This document shows, piece after piece, positions 7,443-60,257 of a stretch of DNA of 60,257 nt. Every line of letters starts with the position of its first letter. Position 1 is the first letter of the stretch. The notes below the pieces were generated by a model. That model worked only from the letters and a program-made list of their open reading frames with translations. It did no database searches and was not told the origin of the DNA. Origin of the DNA: Candidatus Magasanikiibacteriota bacterium (GTDB lineage Bacteria > Patescibacteriota > Patescibacteriia > Magasanikbacterales > UBA922); NCBI GenBank assembly GCA_018061685.1, contig JAGOTR010000002.1:1-60257 (forward strand), given 5' to 3'. Both the position numbers and the translations under genes were made by a program.

Positions 7443-10400
7443 CTAAGATTTCCCTTCCATGAGCAATTCTTCTATTACATCATCAATTAACGTATCTAGA
7501 AACGTTATATTTTTTTCTTCCTGTTTTATATAAGATCCAACCTCTCTTTGGAGTCGCGCTTTGACTCTTTTTTCTACTTCTCCGTAGTGCTCATCAGAAA
7601 TAATCCCTTCCGCACGAGAGGGAATACTTTTTTGCACACCCATCCATACTTCTTGAAAATTTTCTAATTGTTTCTTTGCAGACCTCTCGAGGGGTGATGC
7701 TTCTACCAATCTACGACATCGATCTTTCAAACCATTGAGTCTTCCGTCGGCACTTTCTTTGTCTCGTTTTGTCGCAATACCACGAGCACCCAAAGTGCCA
7801 CTCAAGGTAGTACTGTCTTGTATCAGTGTACTTTTTGCTTCTTTTGCTTTTGGATCGGTTCCGGCAGGCACGGCTTCAACCATGGTACGAACAAGAAGAA
7901 GTCGATCTTGTATGGTGGCAATGATACGTGTTGATTCTACAGAATCAATTGTTTCTTCCTCCACCGATTTTTTTCTTTCAACAGCAGGAGAAGACTTTGT
8001 AGGGGCAGCCAGGGTATCTTTTGATCGCGAACCACCACCAAACGATCCTTTAAACGCCGCTAATTTTTGTGCTAAATCATCCTCTGTTAACGGCTCGGGT
8101 ATAACAGGCTCTTCTGGAGGCATTTCTCTATGTTGACGAAGAGCATCACCATGAGCAGTTTGAAAAGAAGCCAAAGCACTCGCCATGATTCCACTTCCTA
8201 CAGAATCTTTTTGTCCACCAGAAACTGCTGCTTTTATTTGTGCAGCGGAAATAAGACTAGTTGGAAGTGCGTCTCCCGTCCTTATAGAAAAGTCCATCCC
8301 TTCAGAAATTTCCTCCCATGAACGGAACACTATTGGATCAGGAATATCCACATACTCTCCATGCGGACCCCTGGTAGGATCCCATAATAAATGCCTATCC
8401 TTAAGGAGAGCAATTCCATCTTTATTGGCCATATACCTTCCCATAATTTCTCCTTTACCCATGCTCACCCAAGCAACAGACCAATTTGGATCTTCTACTA
8501 AACCAAACAAATCTTGTGAAATTTTTCCAGCACTTGTAGGAAATTCTGATATAGCTCGCAACCCGGTGACAGACCTCACTTCATCCTTATAGCCATGAGA
8601 GCTGGTGCCTCCGAAGCGAAGAGCAACAAGACCAGCATCGCCAGGTAAATAGGGCCGAGTGTATGGCAGACTTCGTGTATCACCTATCAGCTGGTTACCA
8701 AACCCCTCTCCTGGTTTTCTCCCAAATTTTTTTTGTAGTTCTTCTACCGGAATATACAGCACACACCACGGTGCAGGGCTACCTGGCGCCTCCATTGCTT
8801 CTTTTAATCGAGCTGCCTCTGTTGCTTTCTCTGCTCCCATACGTATTTCTGTGGCGTTCTTCTCTGCTAAGGCAGTTTGTATTTGGGCATCGACGCCGGC
8901 AAGAAAGGCGGACATCTTTTTTTCAGCATCGATCACATCTGATAAAGAATCGCTCCCGAGATCAGGATCTTTGCCTTGATAGTGCGGTATGTGTTTTATG
9001 CCAGCACGAATGCAACGTGTTTCTACCCCTTGCATAGCCACACGATGTCTTTTAACACTTGCACCTACCACTTCACGCAACACATCATCGGTTCTTTCTT
9101 CGGCTACTCGCTTTTCTATTTGTTCATGTATCGCTGCTATATTTGTGCTTCGAATGTTTTCATAGGTCTCAAAAAATGCATCTCGCCATTGCTGTGGCTT
9201 CTCTGCATACATATCTAACTCTTCAAATGTCATCCAAGCGGGAACATTCGCCTCTTCTAATAATTTTTCTAAATAGGCTTTTCTTTGTATCAAAAGATTT
9301 GCTTGTATCTGTTCTTTAGGTTCTTCTGTATCGGAAATTGCAAATTTACTTCCACCAGAATAATCTCCCAATGCTCCTGGTCGCTCAATTTTTTTGGCTC
9401 CTGCAATAAGATATTTTTGATTGACTCGGTGCGTCGTTTCAATATTCCCCAAGACCCATCTACCACCAGGCACAGTTATGGTTTCATCATAGCTCTCAAA
9501 TCGAAAAAATGCTTCTCTTGGACTCTGTAAAGAAACAATTTCCGTCATAGCCCTATCTAACTCTTGTCTTTTTTTGCCTTTTTCACCAAACAGAAAATCC
9601 CATCTTTGTTGAGCGGATGATTCGGGTGTGGAAAGTGCTTCTTGTAAAGAATGAATAATTTTTTCTCGTTGTTCGTTTGGAAGAGATTCAAATAATTCTT
9701 TATCTTCGATTCTAGGGACAAGACTCTCGATTGGGTTTAGCGTGGCGATATGAGCAAAAAATACCGGACCGTCTTCTATTTGGACACCTTGTTGTACCAT
9801 TTCTTTTTCCACTCGAATATCTGGTGTTGATTCTTTTTTAAAATGTCGAGATGTATATACGTCTCTCCAGTGAACCGTTCTTTCCCCATACATTGGGTAC
9901 GATAAAATAATATAATCAGAACCAGGATTAGATTGACGAAGTTCTTCTGGCTTACCAAATTCATCAACATGATCATCAGAAGTATACATCGAGTGAAACC
10001 TTTCTTTTTTCTTTTTTACCTCATAGTAGGGCACATTCGCTGCTTCTAATTTTTTTTTATCAACATCTGGGGCAGAACTATATGTAAAATTCCCCCCATC
10101 CATAGGTTGTGGTTTATTCGTGGTATGTAACGTATACTCCGGAACACCCCATACTTCTTTTCCGGTAAGTTTCAATTCCCAAATAGTCTCTGTCGCACAC
10201 TCACGACATTCCACCTCAACAGCAAATTTCTTTCCAGAATGTTCATTTATTTTTTTTACAAAAATCGGTGGCGTCGTCTGCTCTGTTTGACGTGAAGACG
10301 ACAATGTCGCTTGCAAATGCGTACACATCGTACTCTCATGACAAGTCACTTTTCCTTCTACACCAAGAACACTTAAACTCCCCTGCCTTTTATTTGCGTC

Positions 10401-10493
10401 ATACTCAATAAGTGCCGCTGTTTTTGGTGGTTCAAACGTAGTAAATCGAGTTCGTTCTGTTTCAGAAACATGTCCTCTACGAGGGTCTGACAT
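7443..10493 (-). CDS. Large orphan cytoplasmic protein (1016 aa), function unknown
   Basis: Uninterrupted ORF with backbone-like composition. No signal peptide or TM segment. CxxxxxxC ... CxxC near the N-terminus. Only 24 nt downstream of the epimerase gene, so probably co-transcribed. Confidence 0.75.
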   Translation of the reverse strand: MSDPRRGHVSETERTRFTTFEPPKTAALIEYDANKRQGSLSVLGVEGKVTCHESTMCTHLQATLSSSRQTEQTTPPIFVKKINEHSGKKFAVEVECRECATETIWELKLTGKEVWGVPEYTLHTTNKPQPMDGGNFTYSSAPDVDKKKLEAANVPYYEVKKKKERFHSMYTSDDHVDEFGKPEELRQSNPGSDYIILSYPMYGERTVHWRDVYTSRHFKKESTPDIRVEKEMVQQGVQIEDGPVFFAHIATLNPIESLVPRIEDKELFESLPNEQREKIIHSLQEALSTPESSAQQRWDFLFGEKGKKRQELDRAMTEIVSLQSPREAFFRFESYDETITVPGGRWVLGNIETTHRVNQKYLIAGAKKIERPGALGDYSGGSKFAISDTEEPKEQIQANLLIQRKAYLEKLLEEANVPAWMTFEELDMYAEKPQQWRDAFFETYENIRSTNIAAIHEQIEKRVAEERTDDVLREVVGASVKRHRVAMQGVETRCIRAGIKHIPHYQGKDPDLGSDSLSDVIDAEKKMSAFLAGVDAQIQTALAEKNATEIRMGAEKATEAARLKEAMEAPGSPAPWCVLYIPVEELQKKFGRKPGEGFGNQLIGDTRSLPYTRPYLPGDAGLVALRFGGTSSHGYKDEVRSVTGLRAISEFPTSAGKISQDLFGLVEDPNWSVAWVSMGKGEIMGRYMANKDGIALLKDRHLLWDPTRGPHGEYVDIPDPIVFRSWEEISEGMDFSIRTGDALPTSLISAAQIKAAVSGGQKDSVGSGIMASALASFQTAHGDALRQHREMPPEEPVIPEPLTEDDLAQKLAAFKGSFGGGSRSKDTLAAPTKSSPAVERKKSVEEETIDSVESTRIIATIQDRLLLVRTMVEAVPAGTDPKAKEAKSTLIQDSTTLSGTLGARGIATKRDKESADGRLNGLKDRCRRLVEASPLERSAKKQLENFQEVWMGVQKSIPSRAEGIISDEHYGEVEKRVKARLQREVGSYIKQEEKNITFLDTLIDDVIEELLMEGKS

Positions 10494-10517
10494 ATAATAA
10501 AAAATAATTTTTTTTTA

Positions 10518-11429
10518 TTATACCATATCCATTTCTTTTTTGAGAGCGCCGATCCCCTCTTCCAAAGAAATAGTTGGCTCCCAGCCCAACAATTCTTTTG
10601 CTTTTGTTCTATTCGCTCCGGCATATCGTGGGTCCCCTGGTCGTTCTGGCACAAATACTTTTTCTCCACCAATAATGTCGACAATATCTAATACTGTTCT
10701 CGGATTACTATTGCCAATGTTAATGGTTTCCCCTTTTCCTACGGTGTCTTTTGTCATAGCCAATATGTTCGCTCGCACGACGTCGGACACATGAGTATAA
10801 TCTCGGTAATACATACCGTCACCACACACAGTCATAGGTTCGCCATTTTTTACTTGCTTCAAAAATCTTCCAATCACAAGTGCGTAGGCCCCATCAGGGT
10901 CAAAGTATGGACCGTATACATTAAAATAAATTAAGCTTACCGTTTGTACGCCATACAATTCGGCAAACAGTCGGCAATAATGTTCACCCGTTAATTTGTG
11001 TAAGGCGTATGGGCTAATTGGTTTTTTTATTTCACTATCTTCTTGAAGTAATTTTGCTTCATCCGATCCGTAGGTAGATGACGATGAAGAAAATACCACG
11101 CGTTTCACACCATGTTTTTTTGCGGCGAGTAATACTCTGAGTGTGCCATTCACGTTCACATCATGCGTTTCCCATGGGTATTCCACAGAAAAAGTCACGC
11201 GTGGCAATGCCGCCAAGTGAAAGATTCCGTCAATACCAACACATACTTTGTCGAGGTCAGCATCGTTACGAATATCACCCTCAACATAGGTTGCCCCTCC
11301 CTGCAAACGTTCTTCTTTTTTGCCACCTGCATAGTTATCTAACACCACCACCTCATGCCCTTCTGTAAGTAATTGCTTCACGATATTGGTGCCAATGAAT
11401 CCAGCACCGCCTGTGACGAGATATTTCAT
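10518..11429 (-). CDS. NAD-dependent nucleotide-sugar epimerase/dehydratase (extended SDR)
   Basis: TGGAGFIG Rossmann motif at the N-terminus and YxxxK (YALHK) catalytic motif. Substrate not determinable by eye. Confidence 0.85.
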   Translation of the reverse strand: MKYLVTGGAGFIGTNIVKQLLTEGHEVVVLDNYAGGKKEERLQGGATYVEGDIRNDADLDKVCVGIDGIFHLAALPRVTFSVEYPWETHDVNVNGTLRVLLAAKKHGVKRVVFSSSSSTYGSDEAKLLQEDSEIKKPISPYALHKLTGEHYCRLFAELYGVQTVSLIYFNVYGPYFDPDGAYALVIGRFLKQVKNGEPMTVCGDGMYYRDYTHVSDVVRANILAMTKDTVGKGETINIGNSNPRTVLDIVDIIGGEKVFVPERPGDPRYAGANRTKAKELLGWEPTISLEEGIGALKKEMDMV

Positions 11430-12975: not shown

Positions 12976-13674
12976 ATGCGGACGTTCATTTCTTTCTTTC
13001 TCGCTCTGGCCTTTCCCCTCTTCTCCCTGGCAGAGGTGGAAAAAGTCACTGTGACCGAGGTGCGTCTTTTGCCCAAGGGAGGGGAAACCAACACCCTCCC
13101 CATGATCTTCATCCTGACTTGCAGCGATTGCTCAGGTCACGAAGTGGCAGAAAACGCAGTGAAGCGTGCCAGCGAACGGCTGGCCAAGGGAGTCTCCCTC
13201 CCCGACCGATTTCCGCTTCGAATCGGCTTCACCTACACCATCAATGGTGATACCTTTACCCCCACAGAAAAGGTTCACCGTGTGGTGGTCACGGTGCCGC
13301 CGCCCATGATGCCCAACCCTGACCCATGGCCATTTCGACGCCCTCACTGGGTGTCGCTCACCCTCATAGGGGTGGGAGCCGCGGGCATTACCACAGGCTT
13401 CATACTGGGCAATGAGTCGGTAAAGGCAGACAATGCTGCCTACATGTATGATCGAGGACTCGGCAGCAAAGTGGGGAACCAACTTCGCGCCGACGCCCTG
13501 AACTACGGGACAGGGGCTGGCTGGAGCCATCTTGTGGGGTGGACATTCCTCTTCACGGGCCTCGCACTGTGGCCCATGTTGGATGATCCTCCACTCATCC
13601 AAGTGGGAATACTCGATACGATTGGAAGAGAAGGTGGTGGCTTCACCTTCACGGGGAAGCACAACCTTTTCTGA
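12976..13674 (+). CDS. GC-rich secreted/membrane hypothetical protein (232 aa)
   Basis: AAAGGA SD. Signal peptide MRTFISFFLALAFPLFSLAEV. One internal hydrophobic helix. C-terminal Gly-rich strands ending in F. GC-rich codons unlike the backbone. Confidence 0.7.
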   Translation: MRTFISFFLALAFPLFSLAEVEKVTVTEVRLLPKGGETNTLPMIFILTCSDCSGHEVAENAVKRASERLAKGVSLPDRFPLRIGFTYTINGDTFTPTEKVHRVVVTVPPPMMPNPDPWPFRRPHWVSLTLIGVGAAGITTGFILGNESVKADNAAYMYDRGLGSKVGNQLRADALNYGTGAGWSHLVGWTFLFTGLALWPMLDDPPLIQVGILDTIGREGGGFTFTGKHNLF

Positions 13675-52572: not shown

Positions 52573-52959
52573 ATGCCAACACATTTGGCAATAATTCTTA
52601 CATCTATGGAGGAGACAAACATAAAGGGGATGTTGGAGGATATGTTGGGCATTTTGCAGCATATCAAAGATACCGGGGCATCGAAAGAGGATATTAAAGA
52701 TATGGCGACAAAAAATGATATCGTTGGCATGGCAACAAAAGAGGATATCAAAAACTTGGCAACGACAACTGATTTACAAGTATTAGATCATAAAGTCGAT
52801 TATCTCAAATATAAAATAGATACGATAGAAATAAAATTAGATAAACAAGGCAAAGCATTGGAAAAAATTGCAAAGACGAATCAACAAGATAATACTGCTT
52901 TGGGGAAAGATGTCATGCTGTTGAAAAAGAAAGTGTTGGTACTGGAAAACAGAAAATAA
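52573..52959 (+). CDS. Small coiled-coil hypothetical protein with (A)TKxDI repeats (128 aa)
   Basis: SKEDIKDMATKNDIVGMATKEDIKNLATTTDL repeats followed by heptads. Paralog of 52026..52382. The start could be an internal ATG (52606). Confidence 0.6.
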   Translation: MPTHLAIILTSMEETNIKGMLEDMLGILQHIKDTGASKEDIKDMATKNDIVGMATKEDIKNLATTTDLQVLDHKVDYLKYKIDTIEIKLDKQGKALEKIAKTNQQDNTALGKDVMLLKKKVLVLENRK

Positions 52960-52980
52960 AAATATATGTAAAAACAAAAA

Positions 52981-53006
52981 ACCCACTTTAAAAAGTGGGT
53001 TTTTTG
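52981..53006 (+). terminator. Intrinsic terminator
   Basis: ACCCACTT-TAAA-AAGTGGGT followed by TTTTTG. Confidence 0.8.
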
Positions 53007-53113
53007 TATTATTCTTTTCACAAGTAACTTATGGAGAGAATGATGGGGGGGCTCGGTGTTTTCTTGGGAAAAAACTTGTCCGAGCCCTAGGTTGAAAGAA
53101 CAGAGTTGGTGAA

Positions 53114-53220: not shown

Positions 53221-55539
53221 CTAGAGCGGAAGCGGGCTTCCGTCCGGGCGCAGGCCGTCACAGTTGTTGTCGAACTCGGTGCCGCCGGCACCATCGAGGA
53301 GCCAATCCGTGGCCCCAGGATAGTTACCAGCGCCGCCGCCGACGCTGTCGTCGCAGTCTCCGATGAGGAGCTGCGCACACTGGAGGTTGACGGAGCCGAG
53401 ACAGGTCATGCCTCCGGCGAGCTGAGCTGCGTCCAAGTCGCAGACACAGTCCCCGTCGTCGTCCCACCGGTCGGGATTGCCGTTGCCCTGGGGGCCAGCA
53501 TTGGCACCGGACTGATTGACGCCCGTGCGACCGTTCATGTCGGTGGCGTCGATACAGGTACCGGCGCGGCAGGCCTGGCCACCAGCGCAGTCGGCGTCGA
53601 CGACGCACTGCACAACCTCGCACTCGGCCGCATTCGCAGCACAGGTGGGGTCCGCGCAGTCGGTGAGCCCGTCGCCATCGTTGTCGATGTCGTCGTTGCA
53701 CTGGTCACCGTCGTTGCCTTCGGTGTCGCAGGCGTTGCCCACGCTGTCGTTGTCGTTGTCGGCCTGGTTGGGGTTGGCGGTGTTCACACAGTTGTCACAC
53801 ACGTTGCCCACGCCGTCGCCATCGGCGTCCGCCTGATCCGCATTGGAAATGCGGGGGCAGTTGTCGTTGGCGTCGAGGATGCCATCGCCGTCGGTGTCGA
53901 GCTGCGGGCCATAGCCAGGGGCATAGGCCAAGCACCCCCGATTGGGAGCGCAGGCCACGGGACCGTTGGCCGGACCGCAGATGTCCACGGCAGGATCGAT
54001 GTCGATCAAGCCGTAGTCCGACTCGCCGAGGCGCACGCACCGGACGTAGATCAGGTGCGCACCGGCAAACCGAGCCGGCAGGCCGTACTCGACGGGAGGA
54101 TTGTTGATGTTGCCGCAGGTGCCCTTCTCTTCGAGGGCGCCTTCGTTCTCATTCTCATTGAAGGTGCAGAACATGAACTGGGGGTTGCCCCCCTCGTCAC
54201 AGACCGCGGGCACTCCATCGATGTCGATGAGCGTGCCAGCCGGCATCTGCTCGGGCTCACCGCAGGCGGCGAACTCGGGGTCGCAGAAGCCAACCCAGCA
54301 GGGGCCGACGGCGGCGGGACAGGTCATGTTCAGGTCTTCGGCCGGGGCGCAAGCGCCCTCGCCGTTGCACGCGTCTTCCACGGTGCAGGGATCGTCGTCA
54401 TCGCAGACGACACCGGCGGCCAGGTCGCCGGCAGAGGTGCACATGCCCGTCTCGGGGTTGCACACCTCATTGCCATTGCAGATCTCGCCATCGTCCTGGC
54501 AGACGACGGCGGTGCCTTCGCACTCGCCCTGGTCACACCGATCGGTGTGGGTACAGGCGTTGGCGTCGTTGCACACGGCACCGTTCATGGGCTCGGCCGG
54601 CTGCATGCAGCCGAACTCATCGTCGCACCGCGGGGCGGCGGTGCAGGGGTTGGCGTCGGCCTCGCACACGACCGCCGCGTACTGGCAGGTGCCATCGACG
54701 CAGCTGTCGGTGGTGCAGGCGCTGCCATCGCTGGGGCAGTCGGCGTTGACCTGGCAGTCGAGAACCTCGCGGCAGACCGCGAACTGGGAAGGGGTTTCGG
54801 CCCCCTCAAAATCCAGCTCGCACTGCTGCCGCAGGCCACGGGCAGACAGCCCACACTCGTTGGCGAACGGCACAAGCAAAGCCTGGCCGTCGTCAGCGAT
54901 GAAGAGACCGACGCCGAAGCGGTCGGTGTAGGGAACGTAGATCGCGTCCCCCTCTTCATCGAACATGAACTCGCCGGTCTCGGGGTTGCGGGCGTGAACC
55001 GACACGTTGTAGTCAACGCCCGTGAGGGCGTCGACACCACACCACATCAGCGCGTAGGGGCCCCAAGGCCCGAAGGCCGTGTGCCCGTTGATGTGGGGAT
55101 CCAGCACGGTCTGGGCCTGCTGCAGAGCAGCGAGACCCACACCGACATACACCTGCCCTCCCTCGACGGGGGTGGCCGTGTTGTAGTTGCCGCTGTACCG
55201 CTCGACCAGCACCTGGAACTCGGGCACCTCGACCATGGGGGTGAGGGGCTCGTTGAGGGACTCGACACAGCTGCCCTCGTGGGTCAGCTGCACCTGGTCG
55301 ATCATGCCGCAGTACTGGGTGGGCCCGTTCTTGTTCACGAGGAACATCTCGGGGCCGCTGACATACACCATGACGTTGGTGTCGACGCGCAGCTTGTTCT
55401 GGGTGGCGTTGCCACCCACCGGGCTCTGCGTGCCCGGGTTGGGGTTGGAGTTGCCCTCGGGCTGCCCGTACTGGCAACCGGTGAGGGCGATGAGGGAGAG
55501 GGCGGTGACCAAACCGCCAAAGGTCAGGGTGCGGTGCAT
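53221..55539 (-). CDS. GC-rich lipoprotein with Cys-rich repeats and thrombospondin type-3 (Ca-binding) repeats
   Basis: AAGGAG SD. Signal plus lipobox LIALTGC. Repeated CxxDxxxCTxDxCxxGxC units. DTDGDGILDANDNCPRISNADQADADGDGVGNVCDNC... TSP3-type repeats near the C-terminus. Confidence 0.85.
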   Translation of the reverse strand: MHRTLTFGGLVTALSLIALTGCQYGQPEGNSNPNPGTQSPVGGNATQNKLRVDTNVMVYVSGPEMFLVNKNGPTQYCGMIDQVQLTHEGSCVESLNEPLTPMVEVPEFQVLVERYSGNYNTATPVEGGQVYVGVGLAALQQAQTVLDPHINGHTAFGPWGPYALMWCGVDALTGVDYNVSVHARNPETGEFMFDEEGDAIYVPYTDRFGVGLFIADDGQALLVPFANECGLSARGLRQQCELDFEGAETPSQFAVCREVLDCQVNADCPSDGSACTTDSCVDGTCQYAAVVCEADANPCTAAPRCDDEFGCMQPAEPMNGAVCNDANACTHTDRCDQGECEGTAVVCQDDGEICNGNEVCNPETGMCTSAGDLAAGVVCDDDDPCTVEDACNGEGACAPAEDLNMTCPAAVGPCWVGFCDPEFAACGEPEQMPAGTLIDIDGVPAVCDEGGNPQFMFCTFNENENEGALEEKGTCGNINNPPVEYGLPARFAGAHLIYVRCVRLGESDYGLIDIDPAVDICGPANGPVACAPNRGCLAYAPGYGPQLDTDGDGILDANDNCPRISNADQADADGDGVGNVCDNCVNTANPNQADNDNDSVGNACDTEGNDGDQCNDDIDNDGDGLTDCADPTCAANAAECEVVQCVVDADCAGGQACRAGTCIDATDMNGRTGVNQSGANAGPQGNGNPDRWDDDGDCVCDLDAAQLAGGMTCLGSVNLQCAQLLIGDCDDSVGGGAGNYPGATDWLLDGAGGTEFDNNCDGLRPDGSPLPL

Positions 55540-55814
55540 ATTTACTCCTTATGCGTCCGCGGTTGATACAAAAGTCCTTCCCCGCTTGCAGCAGGGATAT
55601 CGGTCTACTTGGAAAGTAGCTCTCGATTCCCCCTGGCTGATGGGGGTAAGGACTTGGCTTCACTTCTTCCAGCCAGATGTACTGAGTACAAGTGTACTCC
55701 ACACACATGGCTGGAAGAGAGGTGAAACAATTTTTTTTACAAATAAATTGTAAAGATCTTTTTTAAAGGGATTAATCTCCACCAAGAAAATTTTTTGATG
55801 AAGATATGCTCCTC

Positions 55815-55879
55815 TCCCTCGTCGTTTCGTATGAATGCGTTCGCCTTGTGAGCAAATGCGTTCAATGAACGACGAGGGA
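55815..55879 (-). terminator. 12-bp stem hairpin after the 232-aa lipoprotein CDS
   Basis: TCCCTCGTCGTT / AACGACGAGGGA with a 41-nt loop containing a direct repeat of AATGCGTTC. Confidence 0.35.
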
Positions 55880-55895
55880 AGTAGTTGTTGGTTGT

Positions 55896-56594
55896 TCAGT
55901 CGGCGGGATCGAAACCCCGCCATTGCCTGGTCGTGGGATCCAGGCATCCCATACCGGCCTCGGCCCGACACACGAGCGCACCCTGCGACGCAAGGCCGCA
56001 GACGTGCTCGGGCAAGAGGTGCCACTGGCGGTCCTCGCGGCACTGTGCAATGGCGAGGATCCCCTCTGCGCCAAACTGGACGCAGGTGTAGGACCCGACA
56101 TCATCGCACACCCCGGTGACAGGGATGGGCGCACACTCCTCGGCCCCGGGGGGCAGAAAGGTGGTCACCCCGTCGCAGTGGCACTCGCCGTCTCGCCAGA
56201 CTTCGCCCTCGCCGCAGCGGGGGTTGTTCTGGCAGGCACCATCCACGCACCGGTCGGTGGTGGACGGGTCGTCGTCCATGCACTCCGCATTGCGGGTGCA
56301 TTCGGGGGGCGTGGCGTCGGGCAGGGAGGCGTCGACATCGCTGTCGGGCGCCTCCATGTCGGGGGTGGGGGGCGTCGCGTCGGGCTCGGCGTCGGGCAGG
56401 GCGGCGTCCTCACTGGGAGGAGCCGCATCGACCGCGGCATCGGGCTCGGTGGCGTCGGGCGCGGGGATGGTGCCATCGACATGGACGTGCGCCTGGGCGC
56501 AGACGTCCACGCCATCGCGAACGCAATCGTCCTTCCACTGGCACCCGAAAGTGCCGCCGACCACCACCAGAAGCCCGCAAATGAGGGTCTTCAT
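55896..56594 (-). CDS. GC-rich Cys-rich lipoprotein (232 aa)
   Basis: AGGAGG SD 8 nt upstream of the ATG at 56594. Signal plus lipobox GGTFGC. Pro/Asp/Ala-rich linker. Cys-rich C-terminal half. Confidence 0.8.
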   Translation of the reverse strand: MKTLICGLLVVVGGTFGCQWKDDCVRDGVDVCAQAHVHVDGTIPAPDATEPDAAVDAAPPSEDAALPDAEPDATPPTPDMEAPDSDVDASLPDATPPECTRNAECMDDDPSTTDRCVDGACQNNPRCGEGEVWRDGECHCDGVTTFLPPGAEECAPIPVTGVCDDVGSYTCVQFGAEGILAIAQCREDRQWHLLPEHVCGLASQGALVCRAEAGMGCLDPTTRQWRGFDPAD

Positions 56595-56844
56595 GTATCT
56601 ATCCTCCTGCAGCCAAATTGAGGGCTGCACTCGTGGGTCCGCGGCACGCGCGGAACTGTTACATTTCTTAGATGACCGATAAATGTTTCATTTTAACAAT
56701 GAACTACTTATCGGTCACCTAGAAAGAAGGAAAAAATTGAACAACTTAGTTTATAAAGAACTCGGCACATATATGCCAATCGGGAAAGTTAGCAAAGTAC
56801 GAGACCCTGCAACTTTCTTGATTGATATACATGTATAAACAAAG

Positions 56845-56872
56845 ATACTACCACATTTTTACTATTTGTAAA
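56845..56872 (-). promoter_or_regulatory. Putative promoter inside the AT-rich spacer of island II (TTTACA-N16-TGgTAGTAT)
   Basis: Minus strand reads TTTACAAATAGTAAAAATGTGGTAGTAT. About 245 nt upstream of the ATG at 56594. Confidence 0.45.
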
Positions 56873-57022
56873 TAACCTTTGTCACTATGCACTTAACGAA
56901 TTAAATGCACACTGATTGGGTGCCGAGTATGGGGTGACTCGGCCGCACAACCTGCCCTGGGGAAGGGAGGTTCAATATCCATGAGGTAACAATTTTTTTG
57001 CGGCCGGAGTGGCCGGGGGGTG

Positions 57023-57868
57023 CTAGAAGCGCCCACCCAGCCCGAGCCCCCCTTGCAGGGGCTCAAACTCACCGGCCGCCTTCTTGTTGGCGGCAACGAA
57101 CGGGAAGCCGACCCGCAGGGCGGCGTGGAGGCCGGGCGAACCCAGCTCCAGCGCACCCTGGGGCAAAAGCTCCACATGCTCCCCGGCCGTGTTGATCACG
57201 ACCGATCCAGCCACGCCACCCCGAAAGAATTCACCGCCGCTCATGAGCTGAGCGGTGAACCCGAACAGAAAGGCGTTGCTGGGATCACCTTCGCCACCAA
57301 CCAGAACGCCGAGAGAGCCGAAGCCCCCAAGAGCGTTCCAGCTGGCACCAGCCTCGAGCGTGCCAAAGGCGGTCGCGTCGAGATCGGCGCCGGCGAGGAA
57401 GGTGGTGTGAAGCATGAGCTTCCCGGCCTCGAGGTCGTCGAGGCGCTCGGTGGCGGTGGCCTGGAAATTCTCGAGGTCGTTGAGGCGATCCTCGATGGCC
57501 TTGATGGCCTCTTCGTTACGGGCGATGCGGGCGGTGAGCGCGAGCTCGACCGCCCCGAGGCTGCTCGACCAGTCGGTCTTGGCACTCGTGATGAGCGCCT
57601 CGACCTGATCCTTGGAAAGGAGCCCCCCCAACCCTTCGCCGAAGCGATTGATCAGGAGGTCGGTCAGGGCACTCTGACGCGCCGCCGAACTCTTCAGCCC
57701 GGCGAGATGGGTGTTGAGGGTGGCGATCACGCCCTCGAGACGAGAATTCTCGTCCTCGAGGGCGGTAATGTTACTGTCCCGCAGACGGTCGGTGACCGCT
57801 GCGGGGGCGGGGGTGAACCCTCCGAGGAGGGCGAGGGTCACGAGGACCCCCATAAAAAAGGTCTTCAT
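57023..57868 (-). CDS. GC-rich secreted protein: coiled-coil N-half, Gly-rich beta-strand C-half ending ...GLGLGGRF
   Basis: AGGAG SD. Signal peptide MKTFFMGVLVTLALLGGFTPAPAA. Heptad-like region, then alternating hydrophobic/Gly segments and a C-terminal Phe. Confidence 0.8.
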   Translation of the reverse strand: MKTFFMGVLVTLALLGGFTPAPAAVTDRLRDSNITALEDENSRLEGVIATLNTHLAGLKSSAARQSALTDLLINRFGEGLGGLLSKDQVEALITSAKTDWSSSLGAVELALTARIARNEEAIKAIEDRLNDLENFQATATERLDDLEAGKLMLHTTFLAGADLDATAFGTLEAGASWNALGGFGSLGVLVGGEGDPSNAFLFGFTAQLMSGGEFFRGGVAGSVVINTAGEHVELLPQGALELGSPGLHAALRVGFPFVAANKKAAGEFEPLQGGLGLGGRF

Positions 57869-57892
57869 GTCTCTACTCCTGGTACTGAGGGT

Positions 57893-58465
57893 TTACTTGC
57901 ACTCGACCTCGGCCGCCGCAGCGGCCTGGGCCTCCAACATCTCCACGGCCAGGCCGCAGAGGACGGCGCCACGCCCCATGGGAGCGCAGCATGCTTCGCG
58001 ATCGGCGGCCGAGAAGCTACCGATCAGGCACTCTTCCGGCCGCTTGGCCGCGGGGGGCAGGGCGATGATGCCCATGCCCTTGGCCTTGGCGGCCTCGGTC
58101 TGCTTCCGAGCGACGAGCAAAGCTCGCACGCTCTTCTTGCAGTTCGAGGCCTCCTGCCCCTTGGCGGCCGCCTCGCAGCACTCGTCTCGCATTTTCAGCG
58201 AAAACGGGTACCCATCGAACTCCACGGCGCAAACCGCAGTGCTCTTGGGCGCCTCGGGAAGACCGCATGCGATCAGACCCTTGATGGACTCGTCCACCCG
58301 GGCCATGATCAACTTGCAGTCTCCCTTCAGCTTGGCATCGGCGGCCGGGTCAGAAATGACCGCGACACACCGAGCCTGCTGCTCGGCCGTGGGGAGCGGG
58401 AGGGCGGGGCTCTGGGCGTTCGCGACGCCGCAGAGCAGGCACAGGATCATGGCGATGCTACGCAT
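57893..58465 (-). CDS. GC-rich secreted Cys-rich protein (190 aa)
   Basis: GAAAGGA SD. Signal peptide MRSIAMILCLLCGVANA. About a dozen Cys residues in the mature region. Confidence 0.75.
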   Translation of the reverse strand: MRSIAMILCLLCGVANAQSPALPLPTAEQQARCVAVISDPAADAKLKGDCKLIMARVDESIKGLIACGLPEAPKSTAVCAVEFDGYPFSLKMRDECCEAAAKGQEASNCKKSVRALLVARKQTEAAKAKGMGIIALPPAAKRPEECLIGSFSAADREACCAPMGRGAVLCGLAVEMLEAQAAAAAEVECK

Positions 58466-58744
58466 GATCGTTTTCCTTTCTGCAGGTTTTCTAGGCCTGC
58501 TTTTCTTCAGTTAATGGTGGAGCGCCCGGGCGCCCACGTGTAAAGGGCGACACGCGCCCGGACTCTTGTCTCATACAATTGAGAAATACCGCTTCTCAAC
58601 TCTAGTGAGACAAGAGTCCTAAATTATTATATTAATAGAATTTATCCGGCGTAGCCTTCAGGCGAAGCCGGACCTCATGGATTGTAATGATCAGGTGTAT
58701 CTTGCCCCTAGAGAGACAGAGCTTCTAGTTTCAAAATAACGCAA

Positions 58745-58774
58745 TACTATAGCATATTTTTGCCCCTTTGTCAA
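58745..58774 (-). promoter_or_regulatory. Strong sigma70-type promoter reading into island II (TTGACA-N17-TGcTATAGT)
   Basis: Minus strand reads TTGACAAAGGGGCAAAAATATGCTATAGT. About 275 nt upstream of the ATG at 58465. Confidence 0.6.
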
Positions 58775-58874: not shown

Positions 58875-60257
58875 CTATCTTCCAGCAACTTTCCCATTAT
58901 TTTTCCACCCTTCTATTTTTTGCAATAAATCTGCTTTCATAAGGGTAGAGCCATCTGTGTCTGCTGCATTATAGCCAACATCAAACGCCTGCACAGCCGT
59001 ATCTATTTGATATTTCAACTCAGGGGTAATAGTCACACCTGGTAAAAAGTAACTATAATCCCCTTTTGTCGCTGCTTCGACAAAAGCAATTGCTGTGCCG
59101 CTTGTTCTTTTTATATTTTCATATATCGCCGCTTGTTCTGGTGAAACACCCGTATCAACAGATACTTTTTCTACACCAGCACTTGCTTGCTTCGGAGGTT
59201 CTTGTGGCAAAACTTCTACAGGTTCTGGTCGAGGTGGTAGCTCAATAGGTGTATCTTCAACAGGACTACTCGTACCTCCACTGAGTACCCGCCCAACAAT
59301 TTCTTTAATTTCAGCTGTGTTATTACCTGGCTTGGCAAATGCTGTATCTAATTCTGATAATGCATTGATATTATCTTTTGTAACAATGGCAGAGGCTACA
59401 CCAGAAGGTGTTTCAAATCGCACAGTATCATTGGCACCAAGGCGATATTTCAATCCGTTATATTCTACAAATCCCCCATCACTCTCACGCAGTAATCCAC
59501 GGAGTGCATCAATCCGTTGTGAAGAAGATAGTTCTGTATTGTAAAAATTCTTAAACGTCGTACTCGTTTTTTGCATCTCTGCATCCATTTGTGCACGCAT
59601 ATCGTATGGCTTTTCAATTTTTTCTTCAGCCGTTTCAGTACTATCATACATCGATCTCGATACCAGCCCCGCCTCACTTCTATCAACAGGCGATTGAAGT
59701 TCCCCATTTGAAATGGCAACATTGCCACCCTTCTCCCGCACAAAATACTGTCCATCCTTTTCAAAGTAGCCATACCGTTCAAGCGACTCCACGTCCCCTC
59801 GACTAAAACCATGCTTGTCAAACAACCAATCAAATGTTGATTGCGTTACCGTACCAGGCATGGCGCCAATACTTTTTGCAAATGGTTCACTATTTGGTAC
59901 ATCAATCCATTTTTCGCCCGCCTCATCCCAACGGCGAAACAATACTGTCCCATCGTCGAGCTTGCGAGAAATATAACTCCCGTCTACAACACCACGAGCA
60001 GGCACATTCCACATGTCGCCATCAATATTTGCTTGTTTGAATCCACTCGGAGGTACTTCTCCCGGAAATTTCATTTCAGGTGTTTTTTCTGGCACAACCG
60101 GAGTAACAGGAGCAAATGATTTTGCACCATGCTCGAGAACAAACATGTCATCGGCTTTAATGCCCACGGTGCCATCAGGCTTCATGTATGGTTTGTATTC
60201 AATAGTGTGTGTTTTGCCACTACTATCAGTCACTTGATACAGCGGTGTTTTGTCAAA
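58875..60257 (-). CDS. Orphan protein, 5'-partial (frame stays open to the window edge)
   Basis: The ORF track starts at GTG 60233, but the frame is open through 60257 (FDKTPLYQ...). No signal peptide in the visible part. Pro-rich linker PIELPPRPEPVEVLPQEPP. Confidence 0.7.
   Translation of the reverse strand, partial: FDKTPLYQVTDSSGKTHTIEYKPYMKPDGTVGIKADDMFVLEHGAKSFAPVTPVVPEKTPEMKFPGEVPPSGFKQANIDGDMWNVPARGVVDGSYISRKLDDGTVLFRRWDEAGEKWIDVPNSEPFAKSIGAMPGTVTQSTFDWLFDKHGFSRGDVESLERYGYFEKDGQYFVREKGGNVAISNGELQSPVDRSEAGLVSRSMYDSTETAEEKIEKPYDMRAQMDAEMQKTSTTFKNFYNTELSSSQRIDALRGLLRESDGGFVEYNGLKYRLGANDTVRFETPSGVASAIVTKDNINALSELDTAFAKPGNNTAEIKEIVGRVLSGGTSSPVEDTPIELPPRPEPVEVLPQEPPKQASAGVEKVSVDTGVSPEQAAIYENIKRTSGTAIAFVEAATKGDYSYFLPGVTITPELKYQIDTAVQAFDVGYNAADTDGSTLMKADLLQKIEGWKNNGKVAGR

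Follow-up and report, generated by a model that had tools for sequence, protein, structure and literature searches.

A stalked protein with a predicted β-barrel domain in a Patescibacteria contig

We analyzed a 60,257-nt stretch of DNA (hereafter the window), comprising positions 1 to 60,257 of contig JAGOTR010000002.1 in assembly GCA_018061685.1 of a Candidatus Magasanikiibacteriota bacterium, a member of the Patescibacteria or candidate phyla radiation (CPR). Toward its right end, a GC-rich island on the minus strand encodes a secreted Cys-rich protein, a 281-aa protein that is the subject of this report (the target protein) and two lipoproteins (Table 1). The target protein joins a signal peptide and a helical stalk to a C-terminal domain that is predicted to fold into an eight-stranded transmembrane-type β-barrel, and it is encoded in a genome in which we find no outer-membrane markers. 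That its barrel inserts by itself, independent of the β-barrel assembly machinery (BAM), and so anchors an adhesion complex at the cell surface, is a reading to which we give about an even chance.

The first-pass annotation of the window, made from the letters alone, had described a signal peptide, then a heptad-rich region, then a Gly-rich C-terminus ending in an aromatic residue, and both the intact open reading frame (ORF) and the predictions agree with this layout. The N-terminal MKTFFMGVLVTLALLGGFTPAPA, followed by AV, is the sole hydrophobic segment of the chain; a hydrophobicity scan found no transmembrane helix after the signal peptide. Within the stalk, AlphaFold2 run on the single sequence places helices at residues 23-79 and 86-161, with predicted local distance difference test (pLDDT) values of 70-87. 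The heptad signal of this region is modest (LIVMAF residues at a/d positions 0.58 in the best register, compared with 0.40 overall), and searching the stalk against Pfam, PHROGs and NCBIfam returned coiled-coil noise only. The C-terminal portion (residues 152-281) consists of 20% Gly and 12-14% charged residues and closes with GLGLGGRF.

The C-terminal domain is modeled as an eight-stranded barrel

Given the single sequence, AlphaFold2 yielded no usable structure for the C-terminus (residues 150-281; pLDDT < 40). We therefore refer throughout to a barrel model of the C-terminal 140 residues that was computed from an alignment of the target protein with three metagenomic relatives, four sequences in all. 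This model is an up-and-down meander of eight strands, with a mean pLDDT of 86.6 and a predicted template modeling (TM) score (pTM) of 0.76; four of the five models reached at least 80, and one stood at 56.2. Connections between strands measure 2-3 residues on the side of the termini and 4-10 residues on the far side, as is the rule for outer-membrane proteins (OMPs). One face of the strands is composed of L11/A9/G9/F6/V6, the opposite one of Gly together with polar and charged residues.

A Foldseek comparison with the Protein Data Bank (PDB) placed a designed eight-strand transmembrane barrel on top (6X9Z; E 3e-5; TM score 0.64/0.73), followed by other designed transmembrane barrels and then, in this order, by NspA, PorB, OmpX, PagL, the OmpA transmembrane domain and PagP. 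The informative matches were transmembrane barrels throughout, with no soluble eight-strand barrel among the leading PDB entries. Among predicted viral structures, the best matches were phage outer-membrane β-barrel/Opacity-like and Lom/Ail-like proteins (TMq 0.69-0.72). The modeled fold is thus in line with the outer-membrane-like C-terminus suspected in the first-pass annotation, and the domain is predicted, by this model, to comprise eight antiparallel transmembrane strands in a closed barrel.

The producing genome carries no outer-membrane markers

To place the protein in its cellular context, three genomes were compared: the source assembly (G000; 851 kb in 63 contigs, 89.5% complete, 0.03% contaminated), a relative of the same family with a closed 984-kb contig (G308; 99% complete), and a relative of the same class from another family (G449; 98% complete). 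A homologue of the target gene is present in each of the two relatives. Omp85/BamA, LptD, LpxC, TolC-type OEP, OMP_b-brl, OmpA_C, TamB and SLH were found in none of the three, while diderm controls scored positive; the source assembly hence lacks BAM, the lipopolysaccharide (LPS) transport machinery and the other outer-membrane markers, as the first-pass view of a monoderm cell had anticipated. A scan of the source assembly with PF13505 gave no match at the target locus, and no paralogue of the target gene was found within it. A weak OMP_b-brl match on another of its contigs (C51) lies midway along a 1770-aa surface protein of acidic composition, and we discarded it as spurious.

Ribosomal protein L30 (PF00327), the loss of which is a CPR hallmark, is missing from all three genomes, whereas 13 of 14 controls have it. 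In the phylum, the genomes sampled span 0.7-1.4 Mb. A monoderm envelope is what has been described for CPR members to date (PMC8871954, PMC13278184), and assignment of the host genome to the CPR/Patescibacteria, with a single membrane, is supported. The first-pass annotation had guessed a lineage of this kind while allowing that the guess might be wrong; because the genomes are small and devoid of L30, and the relatives in the phylum all lie within the above size range, we retain the guess and reject the doubt.

A second GC-rich gene of the window (12976-13674) had been paired with the target gene in the same annotation. Its 232-aa product does end in Phe (...KHNLF), but is not OMP-like: it has a signal peptide, a central hydrophobic helix at residues 126-144 (mean Kyte-Doolittle value 1.85) and a Trp-rich segment, and is a helical membrane protein.

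Stalk-barrel proteins form a small, patchily distributed family

HMMER, run in full against 1.84 billion representative proteins, returned three relatives of the target protein, 288-299 aa in length and 27-29% identical to it, and no further homologue, with none in any diderm. These three metagenomic relatives share the signal peptide, the helical region and the Gly-rich C-terminus, and end in GRF, GRW and LRF. Screening 401 genomes of the class with a profile added the homologues in the two relatives introduced above, one of 315 aa (G308; end ...LRMEITPF) and one of 510 aa (G449; end ...EIILFF), the latter encoded on the minus strand at 9321-10853 of locus L024 on contig C3. Altogether, six family members are known, at 27-30% identity, all of them from CPR genomes or from metagenome contigs without assignment. 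Each of the six keeps the signal peptide, the stalk, the barrel and a terminal F/W; their ends read GRF, GRF, GRW, LRF, TPF and LFF. Ahead of coiled coil and barrel, the longest member carries an extra Cys-rich N-terminal domain of 230 aa; a match to the 'acidic double-disulfide repeat' stays below threshold.

With a profile restricted to the barrel, and counting the source assembly, carriers amounted to 3 of 401 genomes of the class, 2 of 401 of the phylum and 1 of the 31 closest relatives. The full-length profile had additionally picked up 14 coiled-coil false positives across the class, all of which disappeared with the barrel-only profile. Word-indexed homologue searches with the target protein and with two alignments retrieved the query itself or single members only; the G308 and G449 proteins found no match in the genome contig collection, nor did an alignment (A4) in the metagenome contig collection. 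The stalk-barrel gene is a rare accessory gene, and its products make up a small, previously unnamed family, in which a variant of a known fold is predicted for a type of envelope where it is unexpected.

The gene belongs to a conserved cassette with adhesion-type neighbors

In the window, the stop codon of the upstream 190-codon gene (57893-57895) is separated from the start of the target gene by 24 nt. No Pfam or NCBIfam model matched the Cys-rich 190-aa partner, and its family was not found. The promoter upstream of this two-gene operon agrees with the consensus at 11 of 12 positions; nine such sites occur in the region, compared with 1.8 expected, each of them a consensus match only. Beyond its Ca-binding repeats, the 772-aa lipoprotein shows sub-threshold matches to the MtsC cell-cohesion and Myxo_Cys_RPT models.

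Table 1 Features of the target gene and its cassette, and base composition of the cassette copies
Feature	Position	Strand	Remarks
Target ORF	57023-57868	-	281 codons/aa, uninterrupted
Stop codon of the target gene	57023-57025	-	
Signal peptide, residues 1-24	57797-57868	-	Predicted cleavage after APA
Coiled-coil/helical stalk, residues about 25-150	57419-57796	-	Break at GEGLGG (80-85)
Predicted eight-stranded transmembrane-type β-barrel, residues about 151-281	57026-57418	-	Ends GGRF
Shine-Dalgarno sequence AGGAG	57876-57880	-	7 nt ahead of the target ATG at 57868
Upstream operon partner, 190-aa secreted Cys-rich protein with signal peptide	57893-58465	-	GC content at third codon positions (GC3) 0.85
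Sigma-70-like promoter TTGACA-17-TATAGT with TG extension	58746-58774	-	In AT-rich spacer, upstream of the two-gene operon
Acidic Cys-rich lipoprotein, MKTLICGLLVVVGGTFGC lipobox (cassette member)	55896-56594	-	Own AT-rich spacer upstream
Promoter-like site	56690-56718	-	Upstream of the 55896-56594 lipoprotein gene
772-aa lipoprotein, Cys-rich modules and thrombospondin type-3 (Ca-binding) repeats (cassette member)	53221-55539	-	PF02412 at 4.8e-8
Cassette in the window	53221-58465		Coding GC3 0.81-0.85; spacer GC 40-45%; backbone GC3 0.25-0.34
Cassette in L006	3190-9504		Coding GC3 0.77-0.82; spacer GC 38-49%; flank GC3 0.33-0.50
Cassette in L003	3-5769		Coding GC3 0.91-0.97; spacer GC 46-51%
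Cassette in G449	L024 7636-10853		Coding GC3 0.78-0.81; backbone GC3 about 0.5
Cassette in G308			Coding GC3 0.40-0.52; backbone GC3 0.19-0.26

The same gene order recurs in the three metagenomic contigs that carry a homologue: a secreted Cys-rich protein, the stalk-barrel gene 24-35 nt later, and one or two lipoproteins, which bear collagen, thrombospondin type-3 (TSP3) or MopE-like Cys-rich repeats. Counting the two genomes, synteny with Cys-rich and TSP3-type lipoproteins extends to L003, L006 and L008 (the metagenome contigs), G308 and G449; the lipoprotein that follows the barrel gene is of the TSP3 type in L003, L006 and G308, and MopE-like in G449.

L006 is an independent assembly of 10.6 kb, and the upstream partner encoded there shares 36% identity with the 190-aa protein of the window. 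Its next gene upstream encodes a low-GC protein of 903 aa that aligns over 238 aa, at 26% identity, with the C-terminal ~240 aa of the protein encoded at 58875-60233 in the window. Judged by this alignment, the 58875-60233 protein is a conserved neighbor of the cassette. It is itself large, low in GC and without known family, and its ORF runs off the contig end at 60257. Downstream of the L006 cassette lies a low-GC membrane protein with homologues, 46-49% identical, in three genomes of the window's family. In both genomes with a homologue, smpB, infC, rplT and conserved membrane proteins lie within about 10 kb of the cassette (L023, that is C1:100001-120000, in G308; L024, that is C3:82001-102000, in G449), a position that hints at an old chromosomal site shared by two families despite the patchiness.

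Other elements of the neighborhood vary. The upstream partners in G308 and L003 have no similarity to the 190-aa protein of the window, and a 506-aa neighbor in G308 is unrelated to the family formed by the 58875-60233 and 903-aa proteins (g452/g903). The idea that the Cys-rich N-domain of the G449 homologue is a fused ('Rosetta stone') version of the 190-aa partner was dropped, as BLAST detected no similarity between the two.

GC-rich coding sequences alternate with AT-rich spacers

All four coding sequences of the island stand far above the backbone genes in GC3, and the spacers that separate them carry promoter-like sites (Table 1). As this mosaic recurs in distant copies (27-36% amino acid identity), the alternation of high-GC coding sequence and AT-rich spacer persists with the cassette and is more than recent DNA that has yet to ameliorate. 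Its recurrence in independent assemblies argues against an assembly chimera, and means that the high GC cannot simply be read as recent arrival.

Elsewhere in the source assembly, four more ORFs are rich in GC3 (0.61-0.73; genome median 0.34), at C36:61873-62907, C59:2365-2904, C60:12414-13187 and C49:3222-3575. All four encode a signal peptide of the lipoprotein type, and Cys is abundant (5.6-10.3%) in three of the products. Across the genome, high GC in coding sequence seems to accompany export as a lipoprotein, often a Cys-rich one.

Comparison with known barrel-anchored proteins

Small OMP barrels (OmpX/Ail/Lom, NspA, Opa, the OmpA transmembrane domain, PagP and PagL; Pfam clan MBB, PF13505) share the predicted fold, with a TMq of 0.48-0.60 to solved structures. 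Eight strands, turns that are short on the side of the termini, a lumen face rich in Gly and an aromatic residue at the C-terminus are common to both. The G-x-G-x-R-F end of the target protein presumably resembles the OmpX end GVGYRF, a resemblance that serves as a lead and not as a test. In contrast to these proteins, the target protein has a 125-aa coiled coil ahead of its barrel, very short loops in a barrel of 130 aa and no detectable sequence similarity to them, and it resides in genomes without BAM or outer-membrane markers.

Two kinds of stalked protein are also comparable. The SlpA/OmpM tethers of diderm Terrabacteria, a clade in which the CPR are placed, consist of SLH, a coiled coil and a C-terminal barrel, and Thermotoga has the Omp-alpha/Omp-beta pair (PMC10160955). 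These tethers and the target protein have in common a signal peptide, a long coiled coil and a C-terminal β-barrel, predicted in the case of the target. Unlike SlpA/OmpM, however, the target protein is predicted to have eight strands and is not porin-sized, no SLH occurs in it or in the three genomes, its gene is a rare accessory and not a core one, and an outer membrane to be tethered is missing. Trimeric autotransporter adhesins of the YadA type likewise combine a coiled-coil stalk with a C-terminal barrel anchor, and the adhesion-type neighbors of the target gene recall them as well. Each of their chains, however, contributes four strands to a barrel of 12 that the stalk traverses, whereas a complete barrel of eight strands is predicted per chain of the target. 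They moreover depend on BAM, and the target matches neither their YadA anchor (PF03895) nor their heads in Pfam.

Designed eight-stranded barrels (6X9Z; 10.1101/2020.10.22.346965) resemble the target domain in their minimal loops, glycine-rich strands and length of 120-130 aa. They are synthetic, fold by themselves without chaperones and have no stalk. The likeness speaks for the feasibility of folding without assistance, but not for its occurrence in this case.

A proposed self-inserting membrane anchor and its alternatives

How might a barrel serve a cell with a single membrane? Lacking a hydrophobic helix, the chain would pass through Sec without being retained in the membrane of its producer. 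The barrel would then fold and insert into a lipid bilayer unaided, in the manner of small OMP barrels in vitro, and both termini, along with the stalk, would remain on the side of entry, given the even number of strands. In this position, the barrel may fix in the membrane a stalked complex for adhesion or tethering that includes the neighboring Ca-binding lipoproteins. The bilayer entered could be the outer face of the producer itself, giving rise to an outward fibril, or the surface membrane of a partner or host, in which case the protein would be a hook. OMPs are able to fold spontaneously into reconstituted bilayers, with no other proteins or energy (PMC7383365), and designed barrels of the 6X9Z class have been described as inserting spontaneously (10.1101/2020.10.22.346965).

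The question matters beyond this locus. Transmembrane barrels and Omp85/BamA are treated as joint hallmarks of a two-membrane cell and are used to infer the type of envelope. Should the self-inserting anchor be real, a barrel family in BAM-less, monoderm CPR would break that link, through either insertase-free barrels in vivo or export into the membrane of another cell, and would provide a molecular handle on the attachment of CPR bacteria to their partners.

Several observations weigh against such an anchor. The evidence for the fold is one AlphaFold2 model, a good prediction, from an alignment of four sequences. Neither the target protein nor any of the six barrel domains matched an OMP family in Pfam (PF13505 included) up to E = 10, and no sequence link to OMP families emerged from NCBIfam or the PDB. 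The strand-alternation statistic of the target protein came to a z of 1.5 and was matched by 44 of 500 shuffles. Two homologues give higher values (z 2.0 and 2.8); taken alone, the dyad pattern is unconvincing, and the likeness to OMPs is carried by the predicted structure. The β-signal is non-canonical, as the antepenultimate residue is Gly in the target protein and in further members of the family. Native surfaces of phosphatidylethanolamine/phosphatidylglycerol or LPS are poor substrates for unassisted OMP insertion, and we know of no precedent for a β-barrel anchor in a cytoplasmic membrane. The GC3 of the target gene (0.81, compared with about 0.3 for the genome) still allows a fairly recent arrival here, and the family is rare and patchy, occurring in 3 of ~830 Patescibacteria genomes and in 2 of ~22 genomes of its own family.

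Among the alternatives, a narrower form of the same reading, also offered in the first-pass annotation, has insertion directed at other cells: the barrel would work as a 'grappling hook' in the surface membrane of a partner or host, tied to the epibiont by stalk and lipoproteins. Most CPR bacteria live as episymbionts, the producer lacks an outer membrane in which a barrel could be received, and a barrel is the one type of anchor that can leave via Sec untrapped, as it has no transmembrane helix, and insert afterwards. The neighbors contain adhesion-type repeats (TSP3, collagen, the MtsC-like cell-cohesion match), and an accessory gene of patchy distribution suits host-specific adaptation. We nonetheless consider this unlikely, with the LPS outer leaflet posing a strong barrier to insertion from outside and the cassette encoding no secretion or delivery device; if true, it would make the β-barrel a 'harpoon' anchor, the first in an episymbiont, and offer a natural case of BAM-independent barrel insertion in vivo. 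An outer layer of the producer that has escaped recognition, be it a lipid-poor, toga-like sheath of barrels or a cryptic outer membrane, would instead make the protein a tether akin to OmpM or Omp-alpha. The succession of coiled coil and C-terminal barrel does mirror the SlpA/OmpM tether of diderm Terrabacteria, the clade of the CPR (PMC10160955). With Omp85, SLH, OmpA_C, TamB, LptD and LpxC all missing, a single OMP-like protein in the genome, without paralogue, and a gene too sparsely distributed in its own family for a core envelope component (2 of ~22 genomes), such a layer appears very improbable.

Two further explanations deny the protein a role as a membrane anchor altogether. The first-pass annotation had proposed that the gene is a recent import that cannot be assembled as in its donor, which would here mean a horizontally acquired gene of a GC-rich diderm whose product is useless or misassembled and decaying. 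The GC3 contrast with the backbone, the neighbors with myxobacteria-like repeats and the patchy distribution speak for it. Against it stand the absence of any diderm homologue among the 1.84 billion representative proteins, the AT-rich spacers with resident-type promoters, and an island that contains no tRNA, integrase or flanking direct repeats. Intact copies of the cassette furthermore occur in G308, the closed CPR genome from the same family, in a member of a second CPR family and in a separately assembled contig whose flanks are of CPR type; at 27-36% identity, these copies keep barrel and terminal aromatic. Since the architecture is maintained at 27-30% identity in BAM-less genomes and no diderm relative was detected, we disfavor a dead recent import and regard it as quite doubtful. 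Alternatively, the domain might be a soluble or oligomerizing β structure, such as the head of a trimeric fiber or a ligand- or lipid-binding barrel, with AlphaFold2 and Foldseek misled by a composition rich in Gly, Ala and Leu. Adhesins commonly have coiled-coil stalks with C-terminal globular heads, and the shallow alignment, the one model at 56.2, the weak dyad statistic and the want of a sequence match to OMP families leave room for this. Yet the top PDB matches include no soluble eight-stranded barrel, charged residues amount to just 12-14% with one strand face almost purely L/A/F/V/G, the asymmetry of short turns and longer loops fits the OMP rule, and the C-terminal aromatic is conserved, so that we judge a non-membrane domain rather unlikely.

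Further sequence features of the island

The AT-rich spacers upstream of the two lipoprotein genes each contain an inverted repeat (55665-55718 and 56669-56721), with arms of 26 nt and 24 nt, respectively, that nearly abut; the second of these overlaps the -10 element of the promoter-like site. In the leader of the two-gene operon (58560-58619), a perfect 14-nt inverted pair is spaced by 32 nt. These spacer repeats could be operators or leader structures. Just beyond the island, at 52677-52773, a small coiled-coil ORF comprises three tandem units of 27 nt (9 aa) that are GMATKEDIKN-like, and a strong bidirectional terminator hairpin (52974-53007) follows this ORF at the boundary between low-GC and high-GC sequence.

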